A DNA stretch of 61,933 nt, counting the filler. It is 3 parts of 3 records of this genome, joined end to end, with 100 filler letters (N's around TTAATTAATTAA, not from the genome) between each part and the next. Parts side by side here need not be neighbours in the genome. Positions count along the whole stretch, not along the records: positions 53,398 to 61,933 come from SRR22947727_1987; 2 more parts are not named here. One strand, given 5' to 3'. The position numbers and the translations under genes were made by a program. The notes below the pieces were generated by a model that had not been told where the DNA came from, ran no database searches, and worked only from the letters and a program-made list of their open reading frames with translations. Below are positions 3,900-61,933 of the stretch, piece after piece (within the stretch, counting starts at the first letter, position 1; every line of letters begins with the position of its first letter).

Positions 3900-4790
3900 A
3901 TGAGCACTGAATCCAATCGAGCTAAAACGGAACACCGTTACGAAAAATTGACCTGGCCGGAGATTAATGATGCGGTCGATTTGGGGAAAGTTTGTATCGT
4001 TCCCTGCGGAGCCGTCGAGCAGCACGGACCGCATCTTCCGCTCGATGTAGATCTTATTTGTCCGACTAGTATCGCCCTCGGGGCAGGGTTGAACAGTCCT
4101 GAAAACATTCTGGTTCTGCCTACGGTCAGTTACGGATACACCGGCCACGTCATGGATTTTCCAGGCACGATCAATAACGACTCCGAGACCTTCATTCGTC
4201 ACGTGCTCGATATCACCCGTTCGCTGGCCTATCACGGATTTAAGAAAATCATCCTTCTCAACGGACATGGTTCCAACATGCCGAATCTCGATCTGGTGGC
4301 CCGTCGCACCAATCTTGAAACCGACGCCGAATGCATTTTGACGGGCTGGTGGCAACTCTTGACCGTCGACAAAGACTTCCTGCCGGGCTGGCGGGAGAGC
4401 AAATTTCCCGGTGGTTGCGCGCACGCCTGCGAGTTGGAGACTTCGTTGTATCTCTACCTCGACGAGGACAACGTTCGGAAAGACAAAATCAAGAACGGCA
4501 CCATTTCATTCAACGAGGAGGAGAGCCCCTTCAATTTCGTCGATCTGTTTCAAGCGGGACCGGGAACGGCGGTTTCGTGGACCAGCAGCTATTCAGATTC
4601 CGGCGTTCTCGGGGAAGCAGAGCTGGCGACCGTTGAAAAAGGTAAGGCTGCTTACGATGAGGCCGTCAAACAGCTGGTGCGGATGGTGACCTGGTTTCAT
4701 CCGCGCCCGAAAGATCAGCGGAAGGATCGTCATCGAGTCCCACCGACCATGCCGATGCCATGGAAGCAGCGACCGGTCGATGAGGAGTGA
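3900..4790 (+). CDS. Creatininase-family amidohydrolase
   Basis: GAVEQHGPHLPLDVD, NGHGSN, HACELETS metal-binding motifs. Confidence 0.9.
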   Translation: MSTESNRAKTEHRYEKLTWPEINDAVDLGKVCIVPCGAVEQHGPHLPLDVDLICPTSIALGAGLNSPENILVLPTVSYGYTGHVMDFPGTINNDSETFIRHVLDITRSLAYHGFKKIILLNGHGSNMPNLDLVARRTNLETDAECILTGWWQLLTVDKDFLPGWRESKFPGGCAHACELETSLYLYLDEDNVRKDKIKNGTISFNEEESPFNFVDLFQAGPGTAVSWTSSYSDSGVLGEAELATVEKGKAAYDEAVKQLVRMVTWFHPRPKDQRKDRHRVPPTMPMPWKQRPVDEE

Positions 4791-4823
4791 ACGCCTTAGT
4801 TTTAAGAAGTGCCCACAGTCTGT

Positions 4824-6422
4824 TCAGCGCGACGTTTTCAAATGTTCGATCACCGCCTTGCGATCATCTGGATTTAAGAAGCCCTGAAATTCCATCTTGG
4901 TTCCGGGGGCGAATTTTTTCGGGTTGGTAAGATATTGATCGAGCAATTCAGGCGTCCATTTTTCGTCGCCGCTTTTGGCTACTTTAGTGAGCGCGTCGGA
5001 AAATTCGAAATTCGACGCTGAGGCGATTTTTCGGTCCCAAAAACCATCAAGCGTTGGTGCTGGAAACCCGGCTCGATGCTGGCCGGGTGCTCCGTGGCAC
5101 CCTGAACATAAAACCGAAAGCGTTGCGCCACGTTCTTTCATGTCCATGGATGCAATTTGGTTTTCGTCGATGACAAATTCGCCCCGCATTTTCATCATGG
5201 CCGCGACCTGATCGTCGCTCATCGACGCGCGGATTTTTCGGTAGGCTTCGGCTTCGATGATGGCGGCTTCCATTTCGAGCCGCCCCATTTCTTTAGAAAG
5301 TTGATCAGCGTGATTTTTTTTGTAGCCACCCGGATCGGTTCTCAATGCCGCCATTTGATTGAGAAATTCGTGACGGTTTTCAAGAAATTCGCGCACGACT
5401 GGAATCTGAATTCTCACTGCATCATTGATGAGTTTTTGCTGCTCGCTGTTCAGCATTGCTGAGGAATCTTTGGAGATCGTTCCGCGACTCGCGGCGTGCC
5501 CACTTTTATGCCGGATCGATACGAATCCGAAAAATTGCACGGGCTGGCCGATTGGGATGATTTCGTTGTCCTCCGGTTTTCCAGTGATCCAAGCGAAGGC
5601 TTTGGCGTAAAGATCTTCGAGTAATTTTGCATCGTTGCGTTCAAATCCCGGTGCTTCGACGCGAATGCCTTTGCCGTGTTTTCCAGCGCTCTCGGCATCT
5701 GCCCGCCACTTTTTTAAAAGATCGCGCTGCTCATCTGTCAGCGAATCTTCGAGAGCGGCGTAGGCGACAGCTTCGTGTGTTGCGACGGTGGAATTGAGAA
5801 TTGTAAATCGTTCGCCGAGCGGCATTAATTTTTCCCGATCGATGGGCAGGCCGGTGTAAAGATGGTCTTCCAGCAACGTCAGGATTTCCTCGCGAACCGC
5901 CCACCATTCCGTGAGTGCTTGTTTCTCTGATTTCACGGCGTCCGCCATTCCCTTGCGTTGGGCACCATCCGCAATGGCGAACATAGCCCGGCCGAGGGTT
6001 CCGCGATTCGCCGCACGACCGCTTTGATAACGCAGCGCGACGAATCCGAAAAACTGCGCGTTTTTCCCGACTGAAAGCTTTTCGTTATCGGCGGGCGAAC
6101 CGGATAGCCAGGCAAATCCTTTCGAAGCCATCGCCGTTTGCAGTTCTTTTTCACCACGAAGTCCGCTGTATTCTTCAGCGCTCCAGGTATCGGTGTTTTT
6201 TTTGTCCGGCTTGTTCCCGCCTTTTCCGCCGCCGCCTTTTTTTTGTTTTTGAGCAAAGGCTGATGTGGAGCAGAACAAAACGAGAGCCAAGCAAAGCGCG
6301 TACGAACAGACCCTATTGGTTCGATGAACGTACCCTGTTGGTTCGTGGGAAGTTGGTAGGGACGATGCGGACGATTGAGGGAAATCGTCCCTATCCGCTG
6401 AAATTTTGAAGTCAGTTTTCAT
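4824..6422 (-). CDS. Secreted protein with an internally duplicated helical domain and a C-terminal class I cytochrome c domain
   Basis: Signal-like LCLALVLFCSTSAFA. Two copies of FAWxxGxPxDNE...QFFGFVxxRxxSGxAAxRG. CSGCH heme motif plus NPKKFAPGTKMEF (axial Met). Start uncertain (6422 chosen). Confidence 0.75.
   Translation of the reverse strand: MKTDFKISADRDDFPQSSASSLPTSHEPTGYVHRTNRVCSYALCLALVLFCSTSAFAQKQKKGGGGKGGNKPDKKNTDTWSAEEYSGLRGEKELQTAMASKGFAWLSGSPADNEKLSVGKNAQFFGFVALRYQSGRAANRGTLGRAMFAIADGAQRKGMADAVKSEKQALTEWWAVREEILTLLEDHLYTGLPIDREKLMPLGERFTILNSTVATHEAVAYAALEDSLTDEQRDLLKKWRADAESAGKHGKGIRVEAPGFERNDAKLLEDLYAKAFAWITGKPEDNEIIPIGQPVQFFGFVSIRHKSGHAASRGTISKDSSAMLNSEQQKLINDAVRIQIPVVREFLENRHEFLNQMAALRTDPGGYKKNHADQLSKEMGRLEMEAAIIEAEAYRKIRASMSDDQVAAMMKMRGEFVIDENQIASMDMKERGATLSVLCSGCHGAPGQHRAGFPAPTLDGFWDRKIASASNFEFSDALTKVAKSGDEKWTPELLDQYLTNPKKFAPGTKMEFQGFLNPDDRKAVIEHLKTSR
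6302..6347. repeat. REP-like repeat, copy B (two tandem units)
   Basis: Minus strand reads cacgaaccaacagggtacgttcatcgaaccaatagggtctgttcgt. Confidence 0.7.
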
Positions 6423-56940: not shown

Positions 56941-56992
56941 CAACCGACGGTAAGGCGGCCAGCTGCTAGATCCTGTGCATCGATTGCAACCC

Positions 56993-58456
56993 ATGGTGTC
57001 TTCCCCTCTTCCACTGGACGCCTCTCCGATCCGGTTTGGTACCGATGGTTGGCGAGGGATTTTGGGGGTGGATATCACGGTGGAGCGATTGCTTCCTGTT
57101 GCCGTCGCCGCAGCCCAGGAGCTCGCCCACCAGGCACCTCAAGGCTTAAACAGCAACACTGTGGTGATCGGCTACGACCGCCGCTTCCTCGCCCCTGAAC
57201 TCGCCGAAGTTGTAGCTGCAGCCGTCCGCGGCTGCGGCCTGGAACCGCTTCTCACCGATACGGCCGTTCCCACACCGGCCTGCAGCTGGGCAGTCGTGGA
57301 ACGCCAATCACTCGGAGCACTTGTGATCACGGCCAGCCACAACCCTCCGGAATGGCTTGGGCTCAAAATTAAAGGCCCCTTTGGTGGATCGGTGGAGGGC
57401 ACCTTCACTGCTGCGGTGGAGAGGCGGCTGGCCGCTGGAGGCATCACCGTGCCGGTGGCTGGCAGTAGCGAACGATTTGATGGCCGCGGAGAACATCTCG
57501 CAGGATTACGAACCAAATTTGACCTCCAAGCTCTGACCGTTGGCCTGCGGACCATGGGTCTCCACGTGTTCGTCGATCCCATGCATGGCTCGGCAGCCTG
57601 CTGCGTGTCAGACCTATTGGGCGACGACGCCAAGGATCTGATCACCGAGATCCGAACCAACCGTGATCCCCTATTCGGTGGATGTGCACCGGAACCCCTG
57701 GCCCCTCACCTCGGGGAACTGATGGCTGCAGTAAAAGCCTCAAAAGCAGAGGGCCGCCATGCCGTTGGCCTGGTCTTTGATGGCGATGGCGACCGCATTG
57801 CCGCGGTGGATGAAAACGGAGGGTTCTGTAGCACCCAGCAGTTGATGCCACTGCTGATCGATCACTTGGCTCGTGCCAAAAACCTGCCTGGATCGGTGGT
57901 GAAAACGGTGAGCGGTTCCGACCTCATGCGCCTTGTTGCGGAAGATCTGGGCCGGAAGGTCCTTGAACTGCCTGTGGGCTTCAAGTACATCGCGGCTGAA
58001 ATGTTGGCCGGAGAGGTGCTGATCGGCGGAGAGGAGTCCGGCGGCGTGGGATTTGGCATGCACCTGCCAGAGCGGGACGCCCTGTTTGCCGCCGTGCTCG
58101 TGCTCGAAGCGTTGGTTGAAGGGAAGCAGCCCCTTGGCGAGCGCATGAAAACCATCCAAGAGCGGTGTGGTGGCGAAGCTCACTACGACCGCCTCGATCT
58201 CCGCCTCGCCGACATGGAGTCCCGCCGCCGGCTGGAAGCCCTTTTGGCTGACACGCCTCCCCAAGAGGTCGCTGGATGCCCTGTCCTCGAGGTGGTCACC
58301 ACAGACGGCGTCAAACTCAGGCTCGGCCCAAGCCATTGGCTAATGCTGCGCTTTTCTGGAACAGAGCCCTTGCTTCGCCTGTATTGCGAAGCCCCAAGCC
58401 CGTCGCGAGTCGAGGAGGTTCTGAGCTGGGCCCGCACCTTTGCAGCCGCCATATGA
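56993..58456 (+). CDS. Phosphoglucomutase/phosphomannomutase family protein
   Basis: FGTDGWRG, TASHNP, FDGDGDR, GGEESGG, RFSGTEP. Confidence 0.95.
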   Translation: MVSSPLPLDASPIRFGTDGWRGILGVDITVERLLPVAVAAAQELAHQAPQGLNSNTVVIGYDRRFLAPELAEVVAAAVRGCGLEPLLTDTAVPTPACSWAVVERQSLGALVITASHNPPEWLGLKIKGPFGGSVEGTFTAAVERRLAAGGITVPVAGSSERFDGRGEHLAGLRTKFDLQALTVGLRTMGLHVFVDPMHGSAACCVSDLLGDDAKDLITEIRTNRDPLFGGCAPEPLAPHLGELMAAVKASKAEGRHAVGLVFDGDGDRIAAVDENGGFCSTQQLMPLLIDHLARAKNLPGSVVKTVSGSDLMRLVAEDLGRKVLELPVGFKYIAAEMLAGEVLIGGEESGGVGFGMHLPERDALFAAVLVLEALVEGKQPLGERMKTIQERCGGEAHYDRLDLRLADMESRRRLEALLADTPPQEVAGCPVLEVVTTDGVKLRLGPSHWLMLRFSGTEPLLRLYCEAPSPSRVEEVLSWARTFAAAI

Positions 58457-59073
58457 GCAACCGCGTTCTGGTGATTGCCAGCGGTAACGCCGGCAAAATT
58501 CGAGAGTTTTCGAACCTGCTGCAACAGATGCCCCTGCAGGTGGATCCACAACCCGAAGGGATCGAGGTGGAAGAAACCGGAATCACCTTCCGCGATAACG
58601 CCCTCCTTAAGGCAAGGGCCGTTGCCGAAGCCACTGGCCATTGGGCACTCGCTGATGATTCAGGCCTGAGTGTCGATGCACTTGGCGGTGCTCCGGGGGT
58701 TTACTCCGCGCGGTACGCAGACTCCGACCCAGCACGCATTCAACGCCTGCTCAGAGAGTTGGGGGATCGCAACGACCGCCAGGCACGCTTTAGTGCGGCG
58801 TTGTGTATCGCAGCACCTGACGGCAGCGTGCTGGCAGCAGTGGAGGGGCACTGCGAAGGATCGATCACCTTCAGGGCTCGCGGGACGCAAGGGTTCGGGT
58901 ACGACCCCGTATTCGAGGTCAAAAACAGTGGACTCACCTTTGCTGAAATGACTCTGGATCACAAAAAACAACACGGGCATCGAGGGCGCGCCTTTGCCCT
59001 GCTAAAGCCAGAGCTGGAGAAGCTTCTCGCCAACGCGCCAAGCCAAGACGCGAGCACAAGGCCAAAGCCCTAA
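58453..59073 (+). CDS. rdgB: Non-canonical purine NTP pyrophosphatase (RdgB/HAM1)
   Basis: ASGNAGK, ADDSGLSVDALGGAPGVYSARY, GFGYDP, HRGRA; ATGA overlap with the upstream gene. Confidence 0.95.
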   Translation: MSNRVLVIASGNAGKIREFSNLLQQMPLQVDPQPEGIEVEETGITFRDNALLKARAVAEATGHWALADDSGLSVDALGGAPGVYSARYADSDPARIQRLLRELGDRNDRQARFSAALCIAAPDGSVLAAVEGHCEGSITFRARGTQGFGYDPVFEVKNSGLTFAEMTLDHKKQHGHRGRAFALLKPELEKLLANAPSQDASTRPKP

Positions 59074-59115
59074 CAGAACAACCCTGTACGGTGCCCCTTG
59101 CTACTGACGAGGTCT

Positions 59116-60153
59116 ATGGCCATCGCCATGACCACGGGTTACAGCGCGCAAACCGAGGGCGCACGCCTCTGCATCGATGCCGCCTCGGACTGGGCCCTGA
59201 CTTGTGTTGATCAATTAACGAACGATTCCAGCTATGTGCTGATGGATTACGGCGCTGCCGACGGCGGCACCGCTGTTGGGCTGTGGTCTCAGGTTTTGGA
59301 TCGGCTGCACAAACGCCAGCCCAAAGCCCATCTCACCTTGATCGGCAACGATCTTCCAAGCAACGACAACGTTGCCCTAGCCGAAAACATTGCCAAGCAG
59401 CTGGGTCGCCCTCCCAATCCCACCGTGCTGGTGAGTGCTCGCAGCTTCTATGAGCCCCTAGTGGCCCCTGAGACCGTGAGTTTTGGCTTCTCAGCCACAG
59501 CCATGCATTGGTTGAGTGAATCCCCTGGCCCCCTCAACACGCACACCCACGTGCTCGCCTCAGACGACAAGGAGGCCCTTGAGCGCTTCACGGCGCAAGC
59601 GATGAAGGATTGGGCCAGCGTCCTCGAACTGCGCAGCGTGGAGCTCGCCGTGGGCGGCCGCCTGCTCACCGTGAATTTGTCCCGTGATGAAGAAGGCCGA
59701 TACCTCGGTCATAACGGTGGAGTCACTCGCAACGTTCATGACCAGCTGCATCAGATCTGGCGCAGCCTGGCTGATGAAGGCGTGATCAGCGAAGAGATCT
59801 ACCGCAAGGGAACGATCTTGAACTTCTACAAGTCTCCGGAGGAGTTCATGGCTCCCCTCAAGGACAAGACTTCAGCGGCCTACCTCAATGGCCTCAGGCT
59901 CGTTGATGAGCGCACGGTCCACGTGCCCTGCCCCTATCGCAAGCGTTGGAACGAAGACGCCGACACCGCATCTTTCTCCGAAGGACTGATGGCGACGATC
60001 CGCAGCTGGAGCCGCCACAGTTTTGCCTCCGTCGCTGGTGATGAGACAGCGGATCTCGTGTATGAGCGCTTAAAGCAGCGCATTGCAGCCTCCCCAGAGG
60101 AGTGGAGCCTCGATTACGTGGAGCACCACCAGATCATGGAGCGTGTGGCCTGA
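59116..60153 (+). CDS. SABATH/Methyltransf_7-family SAM-dependent methyltransferase
   Basis: DYGAADGG, NDLPSND, SFYEPL...FSATAMHWLS, QAMKDWASVLELRSVELAVGGRL all match SABATH signature blocks; GAGG precedes ATG 59116. Confidence 0.88.
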   Translation: MAIAMTTGYSAQTEGARLCIDAASDWALTCVDQLTNDSSYVLMDYGAADGGTAVGLWSQVLDRLHKRQPKAHLTLIGNDLPSNDNVALAENIAKQLGRPPNPTVLVSARSFYEPLVAPETVSFGFSATAMHWLSESPGPLNTHTHVLASDDKEALERFTAQAMKDWASVLELRSVELAVGGRLLTVNLSRDEEGRYLGHNGGVTRNVHDQLHQIWRSLADEGVISEEIYRKGTILNFYKSPEEFMAPLKDKTSAAYLNGLRLVDERTVHVPCPYRKRWNEDADTASFSEGLMATIRSWSRHSFASVAGDETADLVYERLKQRIAASPEEWSLDYVEHHQIMERVA

Positions 60154-61217
60154 TGACCATGGCCTCTCTGCAATCCGCCGGCACCCCTGAGGTGTCGGTG
60201 CTGGCTCAACATGTCTCCGACCATCTCTCGGTGTTCGTGGTAGCCGAAAGCAGCGATACCGGCAAACCCGCTAACGGCGGCCTGCGGCTGCTCAATTACT
60301 CCAGTGATGAAGCCTGCATCGCCGACGGGCATCGGTTGGCCAGTCTGATGACCCATAAGCACGATCTTTACGGAACGGGCTTTGCTGGCGGCAAAATTGT
60401 TGCCAGGGCTGCGGAGCCCGCTTCTGTTAAAGATGAGTTGATCAGCGTCACCGCTGAGCTGCTTCAATCCTTGAACGGCGCCATGATCACAGGCTGTGAT
60501 CTCAACACAAGCCTGGAAGACATGGAGCGATTGATGTCGCTAACGCCTCATGTTTTGGCGGCCGTTGGAAGCCCTGTGGATGCAAGCGCCGCGACCGCTT
60601 TCGGAACCGTGGGAGCCGTTGAGGCGGTGCTCGCTCAATCTCTTACAGAAGCAACGCCAGGCAGGGCCCTGGTGCACGGATGTGGAGCCGTGGGTGGAAC
60701 GGTGGCGAAAACCCTGATCCAGCACGGCTGGGACGTCTTCACCGTTGACATGGATCCAGAGCGGGCGGGGCTTCCCGGCGCGACACCCCTTCCCCCCAGC
60801 AGCCCGTGGTGGGACCAGGAACTCGACCTCCTCTTGCCCTGCTCGATCTCCGGTCTGATCGACCCGGAGATGGCCAGCTCTTTGCAGGTCAAAGCGATTG
60901 TTCCAGCCGCCAATGCTCCGTTCCAGAAACCCGAAACTGCCGAAGATCTGCGTCGTCGCAGCATCCGCGTCCTGCCCGATCCACTTGTGAATGCTGGCGC
61001 GGTCATTGCCGACTCGATCGAGCGCTTCTCGCCTGAGGCCTGGGACAAGGCCACACCTCAGCAGGTGTACGACTTTGTACGCCACGAAGTGCGTCAGCGC
61101 GCCACGGATTTCTTAAAACAACGGGGAGATGGTCTGACTGTCAGTGACGCACTGGTTGAAGTTGCCGCCCACAGCGGTAAAGATCCCATAGGACTCAGCT
61201 TCGGAATAGCCGCATGA
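60153..61217 (+). CDS. Glu/Leu/Phe/Val (ELFV) amino-acid dehydrogenase family protein
   Basis: PANGGLR, LMTHK, FAGGKIV, TGCDLNT, ATAFG, HGCGAVG (NAD binding), LLLPCS, PAAN, PDPLVNAGAVI; TGATG overlap with the methyltransferase. Confidence 0.88.
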   Translation: MTMASLQSAGTPEVSVLAQHVSDHLSVFVVAESSDTGKPANGGLRLLNYSSDEACIADGHRLASLMTHKHDLYGTGFAGGKIVARAAEPASVKDELISVTAELLQSLNGAMITGCDLNTSLEDMERLMSLTPHVLAAVGSPVDASAATAFGTVGAVEAVLAQSLTEATPGRALVHGCGAVGGTVAKTLIQHGWDVFTVDMDPERAGLPGATPLPPSSPWWDQELDLLLPCSISGLIDPEMASSLQVKAIVPAANAPFQKPETAEDLRRRSIRVLPDPLVNAGAVIADSIERFSPEAWDKATPQQVYDFVRHEVRQRATDFLKQRGDGLTVSDALVEVAAHSGKDPIGLSFGIAA

Positions 61218-61933
61218 CTTCCACCTCTCTCCCCGCTAGCGCAGCAGTGGTGATCATCGGGGGCGGCATGGCCGGCCTCAGCTGTGCCGCATCACTCGCG
61301 CGCCGAGGAATCAGCGACGTCATTCTTCTTGAAGGCAAAACGCTGGCCCATGCGAGAGCCAGCAGCTTCGGCGAAACGCGAATGTTCCGGGAAATGTATT
61401 CCGACCCGGTGCTTTGCCGTCTCGCTCAGGAAGCCAATCGGCTTTGGCGGGACGAGGAGACCCATGCCGGTGAAATTTTGCGTGACACCCATGGCCTTCT
61501 CTTCTACGGAGAAAGCTGGGATGAAGAGACGATCGAAGGATCGATCCCCGGCGCTCGCAACGTGATGGACGATCAGGGCATTCCCTATGAAGCCCTCAAT
61601 GCTGCTCAGATCGCAGAGCGCTTCCCGCTGAAACCAAAAGCCGATTTCACAGGACTGTTCGAACCCACCGCTGGTGCCGTCCGCAGCGACAAAGTCATTG
61701 CCCATTGGGTTCGCACCGCTCGTACAGCAGGCCATCAGCTCGTCGAACACAGCCCTGTTAGCAGCATTGATGCTGACGGCGGCGGCGTCACCCTCGAAAG
61801 CGGTCATCACATCAGTGCTGGGCACGTTGTTGTGGCCTGCGGCATTTGGAGTCAACTCCTGCTGACCCCGCTAGGGCTGGCTCCAAAACTGGAAATCTGG
61901 CCAATGCTTTGGGCCCACTACACCGTGGATCCA
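61214..61933 (+). CDS. FAD-dependent amine oxidase of the monomeric sarcosine oxidase/pipecolate oxidase/NikD family, runs off the window end
   Basis: Absent from the ORF track because it has no stop. Manual translation: MTSTSLPASAAVVIIGGGMAGLSCA...SSFGETRMFREMY...GLLFYGESWDEETIEGSIPGARNVMD...ACGIWS. ATGA overlap with the dehydrogenase. Confidence 0.9.
   Translation, partial: MTSTSLPASAAVVIIGGGMAGLSCAASLARRGISDVILLEGKTLAHARASSFGETRMFREMYSDPVLCRLAQEANRLWRDEETHAGEILRDTHGLLFYGESWDEETIEGSIPGARNVMDDQGIPYEALNAAQIAERFPLKPKADFTGLFEPTAGAVRSDKVIAHWVRTARTAGHQLVEHSPVSSIDADGGGVTLESGHHISAGHVVVACGIWSQLLLTPLGLAPKLEIWPMLWAHYTVDP

Follow-up and report, generated by a model that had tools for sequence, protein, structure and literature searches.

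We found that the window, the 61,933-nucleotide stretch of DNA analysed here, encodes an ELFV-family amino-acid dehydrogenase that probably forms a specificity class of its own and is not a leucine, valine, phenylalanine or glutamate dehydrogenase. This assignment is well supported by an invariant pair of pocket residues and by a separate clade. We propose, with about even confidence, that the enzyme is an NAD-dependent L-lysine 2-dehydrogenase making piperideine-2-carboxylate (P2C), which would be converted to picolinate and then to homarine (N-methylpicolinate). We suggest a little less firmly that this is the first gene for L-lysine 2-dehydrogenase, representing a cationic-side-chain class of the ELFV family, and that it is the entry enzyme of a homarine pathway found as a shared three-enzyme module. 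The features of the region are listed here, with leucine dehydrogenase abbreviated LeuDH.

59098..60153, + strand: SABATH-family (Methyltransf_7) SAM-dependent methyltransferase, 351 aa; PF03492; proposed picolinate N-methyltransferase
60153..61217, + strand: NAD(P)-dependent amino-acid dehydrogenase (ELFV family, Asn41/Asp287 clade), 354 aa (P0001); proposed L-lysine 2-dehydrogenase
60273..60275, + strand: Asn41 codon (AAC), at the LeuDH Leu40 position; conserved in 107 of 108 orthologues and in all 54 clade rows
60357..60359, + strand: Lys69 codon, equivalent to carboxylate-binding Lys68 of LeuDH; 108 of 108 orthologues
60393..60395, + strand: Lys81 codon, equivalent to catalytic Lys80 of LeuDH; 106 of 108 orthologues
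60492..60500, + strand: Gly114-Cys115-Asp116, counterpart of LeuDH Ala113-Glu114-Asp115, with clade-specific Gly and Cys ahead of the catalytic Asp116
61002..61016, + strand: Val284-Ile285-Ala286-Asp287-Ser288, on helix 282-292 of the model; Val284 corresponds to LeuDH Val291 and Asp287 to Val294
61214..61933, + strand: MSOX-family FAD oxidase, first 240 aa, cut by the window end; PF01266, E 1.6e-37; proposed to convert P2C to picolinate

Fold and side-chain pocket of the dehydrogenase

The translation of 60153-61217 contains all of the motifs named in the preliminary description: MTHK (Lys69), GGK (Lys81), GCD (Asp116), PANGGLR and NAGAVIAD. Codons read off the DNA likewise agree with it, placing Asn41 (AAC) at 60273-60275 and Asp287 (GAC) at 61011-61013. 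Both Pfam domains of the family exceeded their gathering cut-offs, the NAD(P) domain PF00208 with 60.4 bits (cut-off 23.4) and the dimerisation/substrate domain PF02812 with 31.8 bits (cut-off 25.3). The AlphaFold2 model (pLDDT 95.1) has the two-domain ELFV fold: VIA-align gave Z 38.1 to phenylalanine dehydrogenase (PheDH) 1c1d, with an rmsd of 2.7 across 324 residues at 24% identity, Z 33-36 to LeuDHs and Z 31-33 to glutamate dehydrogenases (GluDHs). Structural comparison with these three enzymes had been suggested as a check; the Z-scores bear out the shared fold, and the comparison matches residue ranges rather than residue pairs. By sequence, the closest solved relatives are LeuDHs (E 1e-31), at 22-28% identity to the LeuDH structures, and GluDHs match over the C-terminal domain only, at E 1e-11 or weaker.

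The enzyme shares with LeuDH (EC 1.4.1.9; 7vid, 8gxd, 6acf, 1leh) its fold, the catalytic Lys/Lys/Asp, the carboxylate-binding Asn, roughly the same length and an acidic residue in the Rossmann motif, here Asp199, which suggests a preference for NAD. We propose that the chemistry of the ELFV family is kept, with Lys81 and Asp116 serving catalysis and Lys69 and Asn254 holding the alpha-carboxylate; all four residues are present in 52-54 of the 54 clade rows described below.

We paired residues with LeuDH through HMMER alignments to solved structures, counting residue numbers by hand on 6acf. Asn41 pairs with Leu40, Lys69 with Lys68, Lys81 with Lys80 and Val284 with Val291. Asp287 falls in the Val294 column both in the gapless alignment to 7vid and in a 97-row MAFFT alignment; the pairwise HMMER alignments to 6acf and 8gxd are gapped by 2 residues and set Ala286-Asp287 opposite LeuDH Ala295-Asp296. 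In the AlphaFold2 model, helix 282-292 is unbroken and Asp287 lies three residues past Val284, the same spacing as between Val291 and Val294. We propose that Asp287 points into the pocket, on the grounds of homology and of the helical periodicity seen in the model.

[quoted passage not shown] In place of the hydrophobic LeuDH set, the dehydrogenase has Asn41, Gly114, Val284 and Asp287, so that only Val291 is kept. By alignment, then, the pocket is rebuilt through the replacements Leu40 to Asn41, Ala113 to Gly114, Glu114 to Cys115 and Val294 to Asp287, the last followed by Ser288; the ANNQ motif of LeuDH reads AN-x-P. Gly114 would leave more room in the pocket, which fits a long side chain. The PheDH of Rhodococcus (1c1d, 1bw9), the best structural match, also has Gly at the Ala113 position, in a hydrophobic aromatic pocket, but does not have the Asn/Asp pair. 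In GluDH, the residues at LeuDH positions 40 and 294, which we take to be Lys89 and Ser380, are Lys and Ser; with Asn and Asp in the dehydrogenase, the charge logic is reversed. PDB 1k89 is the K89L mutant of the Clostridium symbiosum enzyme. In GluDHs such as that of C. symbiosum, both positions likewise hold polar residues, which recognise the charged tip of the side chain (PMC2723916).

The Asn41/Asp287 clade

The orthologue set comprised the 108 homologues of at least 330 aa (53-100% identical) among 120 listed, the 12 shorter ones being left out. The preliminary description had made its pocket argument depend on Asp287 being conserved among orthologues, and Asp occupies this position in 108/108. 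Gly114 and Asp116 are equally invariant (108/108 each), and Asn41 and Cys115 are each found in 107/108. Conservation of Asn41 and Asp287 across this set indicates that the pocket observation is not due to chance.

The pair occurs in 54 of the 97 aligned representative rows. Within these clade rows, Asn41, Asp287 and Gly114 are each present in 54/54, Ser288 in 52/54 and Cys115 in 47/54. Asn at position 41 was found in 0 of the 43 other rows, and the pair is absent from the LeuDH-like rows of the alignment. On a quick tree, built with the signature columns included, the Asn/Asp label needs 2 changes against a shuffled mean of 32 (0 of 500 shuffles were as low), and the Asn/Asp rows separate from the 43 LeuDH-like ones. 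Asn41 and Asp287, together with Gly114, Cys115 and Ser288, appear from these comparisons to mark a separate, near-monophyletic clade.

Source databases name homologues of the enzyme 'leucine dehydrogenase' or 'glutamate dehydrogenase'. The dehydrogenase reached the cut-off of no NCBIfam equivalog; the best was the tryptophan dehydrogenase ScyB (NF035922) with 97.1 bits against 600, and the GdhA and GdhB models scored 32-35 bits against cut-offs of 620-750. The new specificity class suggested in the preliminary description is upheld insofar as the invariant pair and the clade set the enzyme apart from the Leu/Val/Phe/Glu dehydrogenases; lysine as its proposed substrate comes from gene context.

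The gene cluster and its distribution

Base 60153 belongs to both the methyltransferase stop codon and the dehydrogenase start; at 61214-61217, an ATGA combines the dehydrogenase stop with the oxidase start. The near-identical genome G272 encodes the oxidase in full, with 395 aa (minus strand of L048, 8972-10159). The order methyltransferase-dehydrogenase-oxidase recurs in 43/47 Synechococcus loci, the remaining 4 ending at contig ends, and in 24/27 metagenome loci, the other 3 being cut. Among the loci with this order are relatives with small, low-GC genomes (L049, L052, L072, L074). A BCCT transporter gene follows the oxidase in 44/45 loci; none was found within the 15-kb stretch around the dehydrogenase in the small-genome relatives, which keep the three enzymes.

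Our metagenome scan used a 7-sequence alignment as query and yielded 30 loci, 24 of them picocyanobacterial. The only new lineages were L053, a 72% GC contig whose four genes stand in the same order, and L078. Distant non-clade relatives (L080-L082; 25-29% identical, or no tblastn match) were left out of the count. In G001 (6 Mb) and 134 genomes of the same family, neither the cluster nor the dehydrogenase had a match, and this family is evidently not kin to the window. Contigs from 4 marine metatranscriptome runs (4 studies) span both gene junctions, which attests to presence in RNA libraries, with DNA carry-over possible, and implies neither an expression level nor a single transcript. Three genomes of ~3 Mb have an Asn/Asp-type dehydrogenase (~60% identical) and no methyltransferase or oxidase match at E 1e-10, indicating that the enzyme also works outside the proposed pathway. 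The neighbours of the stand-alone gene (L050, L051) are a DUF2252 protein, a spermidine-synthase-like protein, an Lhr helicase and a GGDEF protein, and are uninformative.

[quoted passage not shown] HNLC Prochlorococcus would fit the 1.7-Mb low-GC genomes found here.

In other organisms, the genes are fused. Among the 25 representatives of at least 430 aa, 10 join dehydrogenase to oxidase, 3 are dehydrogenase-oxidase-methyltransferase fusions, 2 are methyltransferase-dehydrogenase (one of them with a DAO domain as well) and 2 are dehydrogenase-methyltransferase. A triple fusion occurs in Shewanella surugensis. Fused proteins are also found in the diatom Cylindrotheca closterium, in Pedinophyceae and in Pterosperma, and further dehydrogenase-oxidase fusions in Cyclotella, Pseudo-nitzschia, Nitzschia and Dunaliella. 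Carriers of the module include marine picocyanobacteria, some heterotrophic bacteria, diatoms and green algae, with separate genes or single fused proteins.

Proposed pathway and alternative readings

Lysine as the substrate is suggested by the context of the gene: the coupled NikD-related flavoenzyme, the SABATH methyltransferase, the BCCT transporter and the three-enzyme fusions. We infer the substrate, each reaction step, the product and the direction of transport of the following pathway. The dehydrogenase would oxidatively deaminate C2 of L-lysine, Asp287 would pair with the epsilon-ammonium group, and the resulting 6-amino-2-oxohexanoate would cyclise spontaneously to delta1-piperideine-2-carboxylate. 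The translationally coupled MSOX/NikD-like flavoenzyme would oxidise P2C to picolinate, the SABATH methyltransferase would N-methylate picolinate to homarine, and the BCCT carrier would move this betaine. The first reaction equals that of EC 1.4.1.15, 'lysine dehydrogenase' (lysine + NAD+ -> P2C + ammonia), for which we know of no assigned gene. L-lysine 6-dehydrogenase (EC 1.4.1.18) acts on the epsilon-amine and is of a different fold. Searching the literature by phrase for lysine 2-dehydrogenase found no paper, and the papers retrieved with '1.4.1.15' appeared unrelated from their titles or the openings of their abstracts.

The oxidase and methyltransferase were compared with enzymes of known function. 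Nikkomycin synthesis in Streptomyces proceeds from lysine to P2C, from which an MSOX-type enzyme makes picolinic acid (PMC4021061). The chemistry proposed here is the same, but the first enzyme there is the PLP aminotransferase NikC rather than an NAD-type dehydrogenase, and nikkomycin picolinate is CoA-activated, whereas here it would be methylated. The full-length oxidase (from L001) matched NikD best (2oln, E 3.5e-36), followed by sarcosine oxidase (7exs, 2.2e-30), and appears only modestly closer to NikD. Equivalents of the carboxylate-binding Arg53 and Lys358 of NikD, Arg59 and Lys361, are present in 90/90 oxidase rows. In contrast, the positions of NikD Cys321 (the covalent-flavin residue) and Trp355 (the flavin-stacking residue), hand-counted on the alignment, are occupied by Val328 and Gln358; a conserved Cys equivalent to Cys321 was not found in the 90 rows, and the Trp355 position holds Arg in 87/90 and Gln in 3/90. 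The best NCBIfam match of the oxidase was N-methyl-L-tryptophan oxidase, at 126.5 bits and below the cut-off of 257. The methyltransferase falls in the SABATH family by PF03492 (E 5.3e-24, 85.4 bits against a cut-off of 29.8), as does coffee trigonelline synthase, a nicotinate N-methyltransferase that N-methylates a pyridine carboxylate. Among solved structures, the methyltransferase of the cluster is closest to 5f2k (E 2.8e-17), a bacterial fatty acid O-methyltransferase; since the solved enzymes nearest to it are carboxyl O-methyltransferases, N-methylation is an assumption here.

Homarine, an abundant nitrogen-containing small molecule of the surface ocean, is produced by Synechococcus and diatoms (PMC8269262, PMC13236597). 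It was reported in both Synechococcus strains tested and in 4/6 diatoms, in a study that gives no characterised biosynthetic pathway for it (PMC8269262). One of these strains, WH7803, has an intact cluster (L030). In the literature on homarine we found no genes named for its synthesis; descriptions of genes for its breakdown in bacteria date only from 2026, and the available part of the description of the homarine transporter HomT does not state its carrier family. If the proposal is true, the three genes would be a marker for mapping homarine production in genomes, metagenomes and metatranscriptomes. It would also correct the published and database-wide leucine/glutamate dehydrogenase annotation, and the enzyme would be a natural example of an ELFV pocket re-tuned from hydrophobic or anionic to cationic substrates.

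The genes could form a single pathway with another substrate and product, which we consider unlikely. The dehydrogenase would then deaminate ornithine, 2,4-diaminobutyrate or arginine, and the product would be another N-heterocyclic or N-methylated solute, such as an ornithine-derived pyrrole-2-carboxylate. The acidic/polar pocket argues for a cationic or polar side chain and says nothing of its length, the oxidase is without the hallmark residues of NikD, and the genes also occur in green algae not known for homarine. The dehydrogenase is, moreover, frameshifted in the WH 8102-type record, though this strain makes the most homarine. However, homarine is the one known N-methylated pyridine-2-carboxylate in Synechococcus and diatoms, exactly where the genes are widespread, and lysine to P2C to picolinate has enzymatic precedent. 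A BCCT carrier fits a betaine, which an N-methylpyrrole carboxylate would not be, and a pocket widened by Gly114 would suit a long side chain.

Dore et al. 2023 described leuDH-soxA-CK_00001744 as an amino-acid-related cluster yielding ammonium, with a leucine dehydrogenase for nitrogen scavenging (PMC10119275). A catabolic cluster near this reading, in which the BCCT carrier would import an N-methylated amino acid or betaine, the oxidase would demethylate it and the dehydrogenase would free ammonium, strikes us as improbable. It agrees with the usual activity of MSOX-family enzymes, which typically demethylate N-methyl amino acids, with the sub-cut-off match of the oxidase to N-methyl-L-tryptophan oxidase and with the stand-alone dehydrogenase of some genomes. 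Mao et al. 2010 also read the carrier of the cluster as an uptake system, BetT (PMC2874817). Yet a catabolic role leaves the SAM-dependent methyltransferase unexplained, and methyltransferase, demethylase and deaminase in one polypeptide would be futile. The small-genome relatives, moreover, keep the three enzymes with no BCCT gene in the 15-kb stretch. The pocket, the fusions and the methyltransferase argue instead for biosynthesis with a basic substrate.

We regard as very improbable a dehydrogenase acting on a cyclic compound, be it an L-pipecolate dehydrogenase with P2C as its product or a reductase turning P2C into pipecolate. Hydride transfer at the C-alpha of a cyclic secondary amino acid would be chemically analogous, and Gly114 widens the pocket, but Lys81, which activates water, and Asp116, required to hydrolyse or form the imine, are both strictly conserved, the invariant distal Asp would have no obvious role for an uncharged ring, and no source of pipecolate is encoded nearby. 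The P2C reductase, which the preliminary description had offered beside lysine 2-dehydrogenase, loses ground because the adjoining oxidase is of the type that consumes P2C, so that reduction would undo what it needs. An ordinary leucine/valine (branched-chain) dehydrogenase, as the databases' leucine/glutamate dehydrogenase names and the LeuDHs as best solved sequence relatives (E 1e-31) would have it, is scarcely credible given that 3/4 LeuDH pocket positions differ invariantly, two of them to polar or charged residues, that identity to LeuDH structures is only 22-28%, that the LeuDH-like rows occupy another part of the tree and that no equivalog cut-off was reached (ScyB, the best, at 97 bits against 600).

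The dehydrogenase of strain WH 8102 also bears on the homarine proposal. By corrected values, this strain is the strongest homarine producer reported, with up to 18 mM, compared with ~0.2 mM in WH7803 (PMC10134881). The deposited WH 8102-type sequence splits the dehydrogenase by a one-base frameshift. The WH 8102 protein at NCBI (P0495, 221 aa) follows its orthologue only to about residue 206. Of the proteins of 300-420 aa compared, none of the 12 best is identical to both WH 8102 halves, the best agreeing at 342/345 positions. If the extra base is real, the dehydrogenase is not needed for homarine. In locus L083, the first frame is 100% identical to P0495 and the gene resumes in another frame after one extra base, its second part 98.6% identical to the intact orthologue P0016. 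The frameshift in the WH 8102-type sequence was not foreseen in the preliminary description.

The dehydrogenase and its side-chain pocket

The open reading frame at 60153-61217 (plus strand) encodes a 354-aa protein (P0001) in which both Pfam domains of the ELFV (Glu/Leu/Phe/Val) dehydrogenase family score above cut-off. No NCBIfam equivalog cut-off was reached; the top model, for the tryptophan dehydrogenase ScyB, gave 97 bits versus 600. The closest solved sequences are leucine dehydrogenases (LeuDHs; 7vid, E 1.4e-31, then 8gxd and 6acf), with tryptophan and phenylalanine dehydrogenases next. Matches to glutamate dehydrogenase (GluDH) sequences were confined to the C-terminal domain. An AlphaFold2 model, built from an 87-sequence alignment, had a mean pLDDT of 95.1 and superposed best on a Rhodococcus phenylalanine dehydrogenase (Z 38.1, rmsd 2.7, 324 residues), with LeuDHs at Z 33-36.

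LeuDH specificity is reported to be set by L40, A113, V291 and V294, and positions 40 and 294 to be crucial for GluDH specificity (PMC2723916). The motifs from which the preliminary description proposed a basic substrate such as lysine or ornithine, including PANGGLR (Asn41) and NAGAVIAD (Asp287), are all in place in the frame.

Residues of the dehydrogenase and their LeuDH equivalents, counted along the HMMER alignment to 6acf (for Asp287, see text)
60273-60275, plus strand: AAC codon of Asn41, at LeuDH Leu40
61011-61013, plus strand: GAC codon of Asp287, taken as the LeuDH Val294 equivalent
Lys69: at LeuDH Lys68
Lys81: at LeuDH Lys80
Gly114-Cys115-Asp116: at LeuDH Ala113-Glu114-Asp115
Asn254: at LeuDH Asn261
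Val284: at LeuDH Val291

The proposed match of Asp287 to Val294 held in the 7vid alignment and in a 97-row MAFFT alignment. It did not hold when P0001 was aligned pairwise with 6acf and with 8gxd: a two-residue gap there pairs Ala286-Asp287 with LeuDH Ala295-Asp296. Residues 282-292 form a single unbroken helix in the AlphaFold2 model, which would place Asp287 one turn past Val284, just as Val294 lies past Val291. Based on these alignments and the predicted helix, we take Asp287 to be the likely equivalent of Val294.

The pocket proposal also depended on Asp287 being conserved among orthologues. We counted residues in 108 of the 120 homologues listed (at least 330 aa, 53-100% identical), dropping 12 shorter sequences. 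Asp287 is kept in all 108 and Asn41 in 107, and the neighboring pocket and catalytic positions are similarly constant (Gly114, 108; Cys115, 107; Asp116, 108; Lys69, 108; Lys81, 106). Among 1.84 billion cluster representatives, 2878 matched at E 0.001 or better, 87 of them at 1e-30 or better. We aligned the query with 96 of the 150 matches listed, all covering residues 41-287, and left out 54 fragments. Asn41 and Asp287 occur together in 54 of these 97 rows, accompanied by Gly114 (54), Cys115 (47), Ser288 (52), Glu290 (54) and Pro256 (50); the catalytic and carboxylate residues are retained in 52-54. The remaining 43 rows are LeuDH-like: position 41 is Leu, Phe, Ala, Gly or Val and never Asn, and position 287 is Gly, Val, Ala or Ile, apart from two rows with Asp. 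In a tree built quickly with IQ-TREE (364 columns, including the five signature columns), the Asn/Asp label changes twice, compared with a mean of 32 when labels were shuffled, and 0 of 500 shuffles gave a value as low. P0001 is therefore a member of a separate clade among the ELFV dehydrogenases. Two proteins that group with this clade, P0265 and P0198, lack one or both of the catalytic lysines (GAA replaces GGK and, in P0265, SRVT replaces MTHK), and may be inactive.

A cluster with a methyltransferase, an oxidase and a transporter

The dehydrogenase gene sits in a tight, same-strand order of phosphoglucomutase, Ham1, SABATH methyltransferase, dehydrogenase and MSOX-family FAD oxidase genes.

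Genes flanking the dehydrogenase
Directly upstream, plus strand: SABATH methyltransferase (PF03492, E 5e-24)
Downstream, plus strand: MSOX-family FAD oxidase, 240 aa before the window ends

The methyltransferase stop and dehydrogenase start have one base in common, and the dehydrogenase ends and the oxidase begins within a shared ATGA. In the complete genome G272 (locus L048), a 100% identical dehydrogenase is followed by a 395-aa oxidase and then a BCCT transporter (PF02028, E 1e-125). The dehydrogenase is present in 69 of 401 sampled genomes of the family. Among marine Synechococcus loci, 43 of 47 have the methyltransferase-dehydrogenase-oxidase order, including that of WH7803 (L030), and contig ends truncate the other four. 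In 44 of 45 loci the gene after the oxidase encodes the BCCT carrier; the sole exception stops within the oxidase. The three enzymes are retained at 50-56% identity in 1.7-Mb genomes and in contigs of 26-32% GC. A BCCT gene was not seen in the 15-kb stretches around two 1.7-Mb genome loci (L049 and L052), and no BCCT match was found on two low-GC contigs (L072 and L074). A metagenome contig of 72% GC (L053) carries all four genes in unchanged order at 46-54% identity, and another locus (L078) carries the dehydrogenase and oxidase.

Window positions 56975-59073 encode a phosphoglucomutase/phosphomannomutase (four PGM_PMM domains) and a Ham1/RdgB-type NTP pyrophosphatase (E 1e-58), directly upstream of the cluster on the same strand and with overlapping stop and start codons. 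This pair lies beside the cluster in nearly all Synechococcus loci and is absent from that place in the small low-GC genomes. At L001:11811-12992 (minus strand), a 393-aa membrane protein, MFS-like by sequence, is encoded between the BCCT and SIMPL-family genes; it is missing at that place in G272 despite the identical dehydrogenase. The dehydrogenase match in L052 (G403:C1:1138830-1139876, 53% identical, in the 1.69-Mb low-GC genome G403) contains one in-frame TAA, with the methyltransferase and oxidase flanking it, and is possibly a pseudogene or a sequencing error. A 6-Mb genome (G001) has 58% of the window's words in common yet lacks the cluster, and the dehydrogenase is in 0 of 134 genomes of its family. 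L028, which bears the title of a Salipiger bermudensis MAG, contains a whole Synechococcus-type locus. Both look like bins containing picocyanobacterial contigs.

Gene fusions link the same enzymes. Among the matches listed, we checked 25 cluster representatives of at least 430 aa with Pfam. Ten fuse dehydrogenase to oxidase, three are dehydrogenase-oxidase-methyltransferase fusions, two are methyltransferase-dehydrogenase (one with a DAO domain as well) and two are dehydrogenase-methyltransferase. The other eight contain the dehydrogenase alone with other or unknown extensions, one being a HAD hydrolase; P0193 (592 aa) is an Asn/Asp-type dehydrogenase joined to a HAD-family hydrolase. By source name, a triple fusion comes from Shewanella surugensis, dehydrogenase-oxidase fusions from the diatom Cylindrotheca closterium and a pedinophyte, and a dehydrogenase-methyltransferase fusion from Pterosperma. 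Querying with a diatom protein added dehydrogenase-oxidase fusions from Cyclotella cryptica, C. atomus, Pseudo-nitzschia multistriata, Nitzschia inconspicua and Dunaliella salina (source names), and more triple fusions with PF03492. Every fused form aligned retains Asn41 and Asp287-Ser288. These fusions indicate that the three enzymes act in one pathway. The conclusion that the dehydrogenase is not a LeuDH and shares a pathway with the MSOX-type oxidase and SABATH methyltransferase is well supported, as is the new specificity class first suggested from the pocket motifs, whose signature is clade-wide (54 of 97 rows).

Contigs from four marine metatranscriptome runs (four studies) match the window at 95% identity or more and span both gene junctions.

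Metatranscriptome contigs across the junctions
60004-61291: X10, record 6
59953-61087: X9, record 29
X13, records 16 and 23: the two junctions

The cluster is thus present in RNA libraries, which is compatible with DNA carry-over or separate transcripts.

Three genomes of about 3 Mb (G482, locus L050; G170, locus L051; and G438) encode an Asn41/Asp287-type dehydrogenase, about 60% identical, and have no methyltransferase or oxidase match genome-wide at E 1e-10. The enzyme therefore also serves outside the three-gene module, which suggests a second, stand-alone role.

Lysine and homarine as candidate substrate and product

Dore et al. 2023 describe a leuDH-soxA-CK_00001744 cluster that most Synechococcus carry, as do Prochlorococcus from high-nutrient, low-chlorophyll (HNLC) waters; they interpret it as encoding a leucine dehydrogenase that releases ammonium (PMC10119275). 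That cluster appears to be the one studied here. In WH8102, Mao et al. 2010 place the carrier 'BetT' SYNW0229 within a predicted operon, SYNW0229-0233 (PMC2874817).

Lysine as substrate and homarine as product make the most coherent reading. In nikkomycin synthesis, lysine 2-aminotransferase yields piperideine-2-carboxylate (P2C), which an MSOX-type enzyme converts to picolinic acid (PMC4021061). The dehydrogenase would remove the alpha-amino group of lysine to give the same P2C, and the invariant distal Asp would be the expected partner for the lysine epsilon-ammonium. Picolinate would then be N-methylated to homarine, and as a betaine this product would suit a BCCT carrier. Both Synechococcus strains examined in one study contained homarine, as did four of the six diatoms, and its authors call the biosynthesis and degradation pathways of homarine uncharacterised (PMC8269262). 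After correction, WH8102 reaches 18 mM homarine and WH7803 about 0.2 mM (PMC10134881). A 2026 paper on homarine covers the catabolic hom operon only (PMC13236597). Homarine synthesis genes were not found in the literature searched, whose coverage excludes most subscription journals. We rate the lysine-to-homarine reading about equally likely to be right or wrong, mainly because of a frameshift in the WH 8102 sequence.

This frameshift is the most serious evidence against that reading. P0495, named by NCBI 'possible leucine dehydrogenase [Parasynechococcus marenigrum WH 8102]', is only 221 aa long and diverges from its cluster representative (351 aa) after about residue 206. At locus L083 (G459:C1:225000-236500), the dehydrogenase runs over two frames, ~4523-5185 and ~5136-5576 of the reverse complement, with a single additional base at the break, near codon 207. 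Its first frame matches P0495 at 100% identity and the remainder, in the other frame, is 98.6% identical to an orthologue; the methyltransferase, oxidase and BCCT genes give near-full-length matches. Because the two halves agree with intact 351-aa proteins of other assemblies at 342 of 345 compared positions, the lesion either is a sequencing error or arose very recently. Should the cultures with millimolar homarine truly carry it, homarine production does not need this dehydrogenase.

The solved relative nearest to the oxidase is NikD (E 3.5e-36; top sarcosine oxidase, 2.2e-30). By a hand count on the alignment, the oxidase retains NikD Arg53 and Lys358 (as Arg59 and Lys361) and has Val328 and Gln358 in place of the covalent-flavin Cys321 and the flavin-stacking Trp355 of NikD. 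Arg59 and Lys361 do not vary across 90 rows of the oxidase domain, most of them diatom fusions, in which Arg (87) or Gln (3) occupies the NikD Trp355 position. Judged by these residues, the enzyme departs from the orthodox NikD type.

Picolinate is known as a metal chelator, and functions other than osmoprotection could be considered for the low-GC relatives with no BCCT match in the DNA covered (L049, L052, L072 and L074). Dore et al. tie low-GC, small-genome populations comparable to these to iron-poor HNLC waters (PMC10119275).
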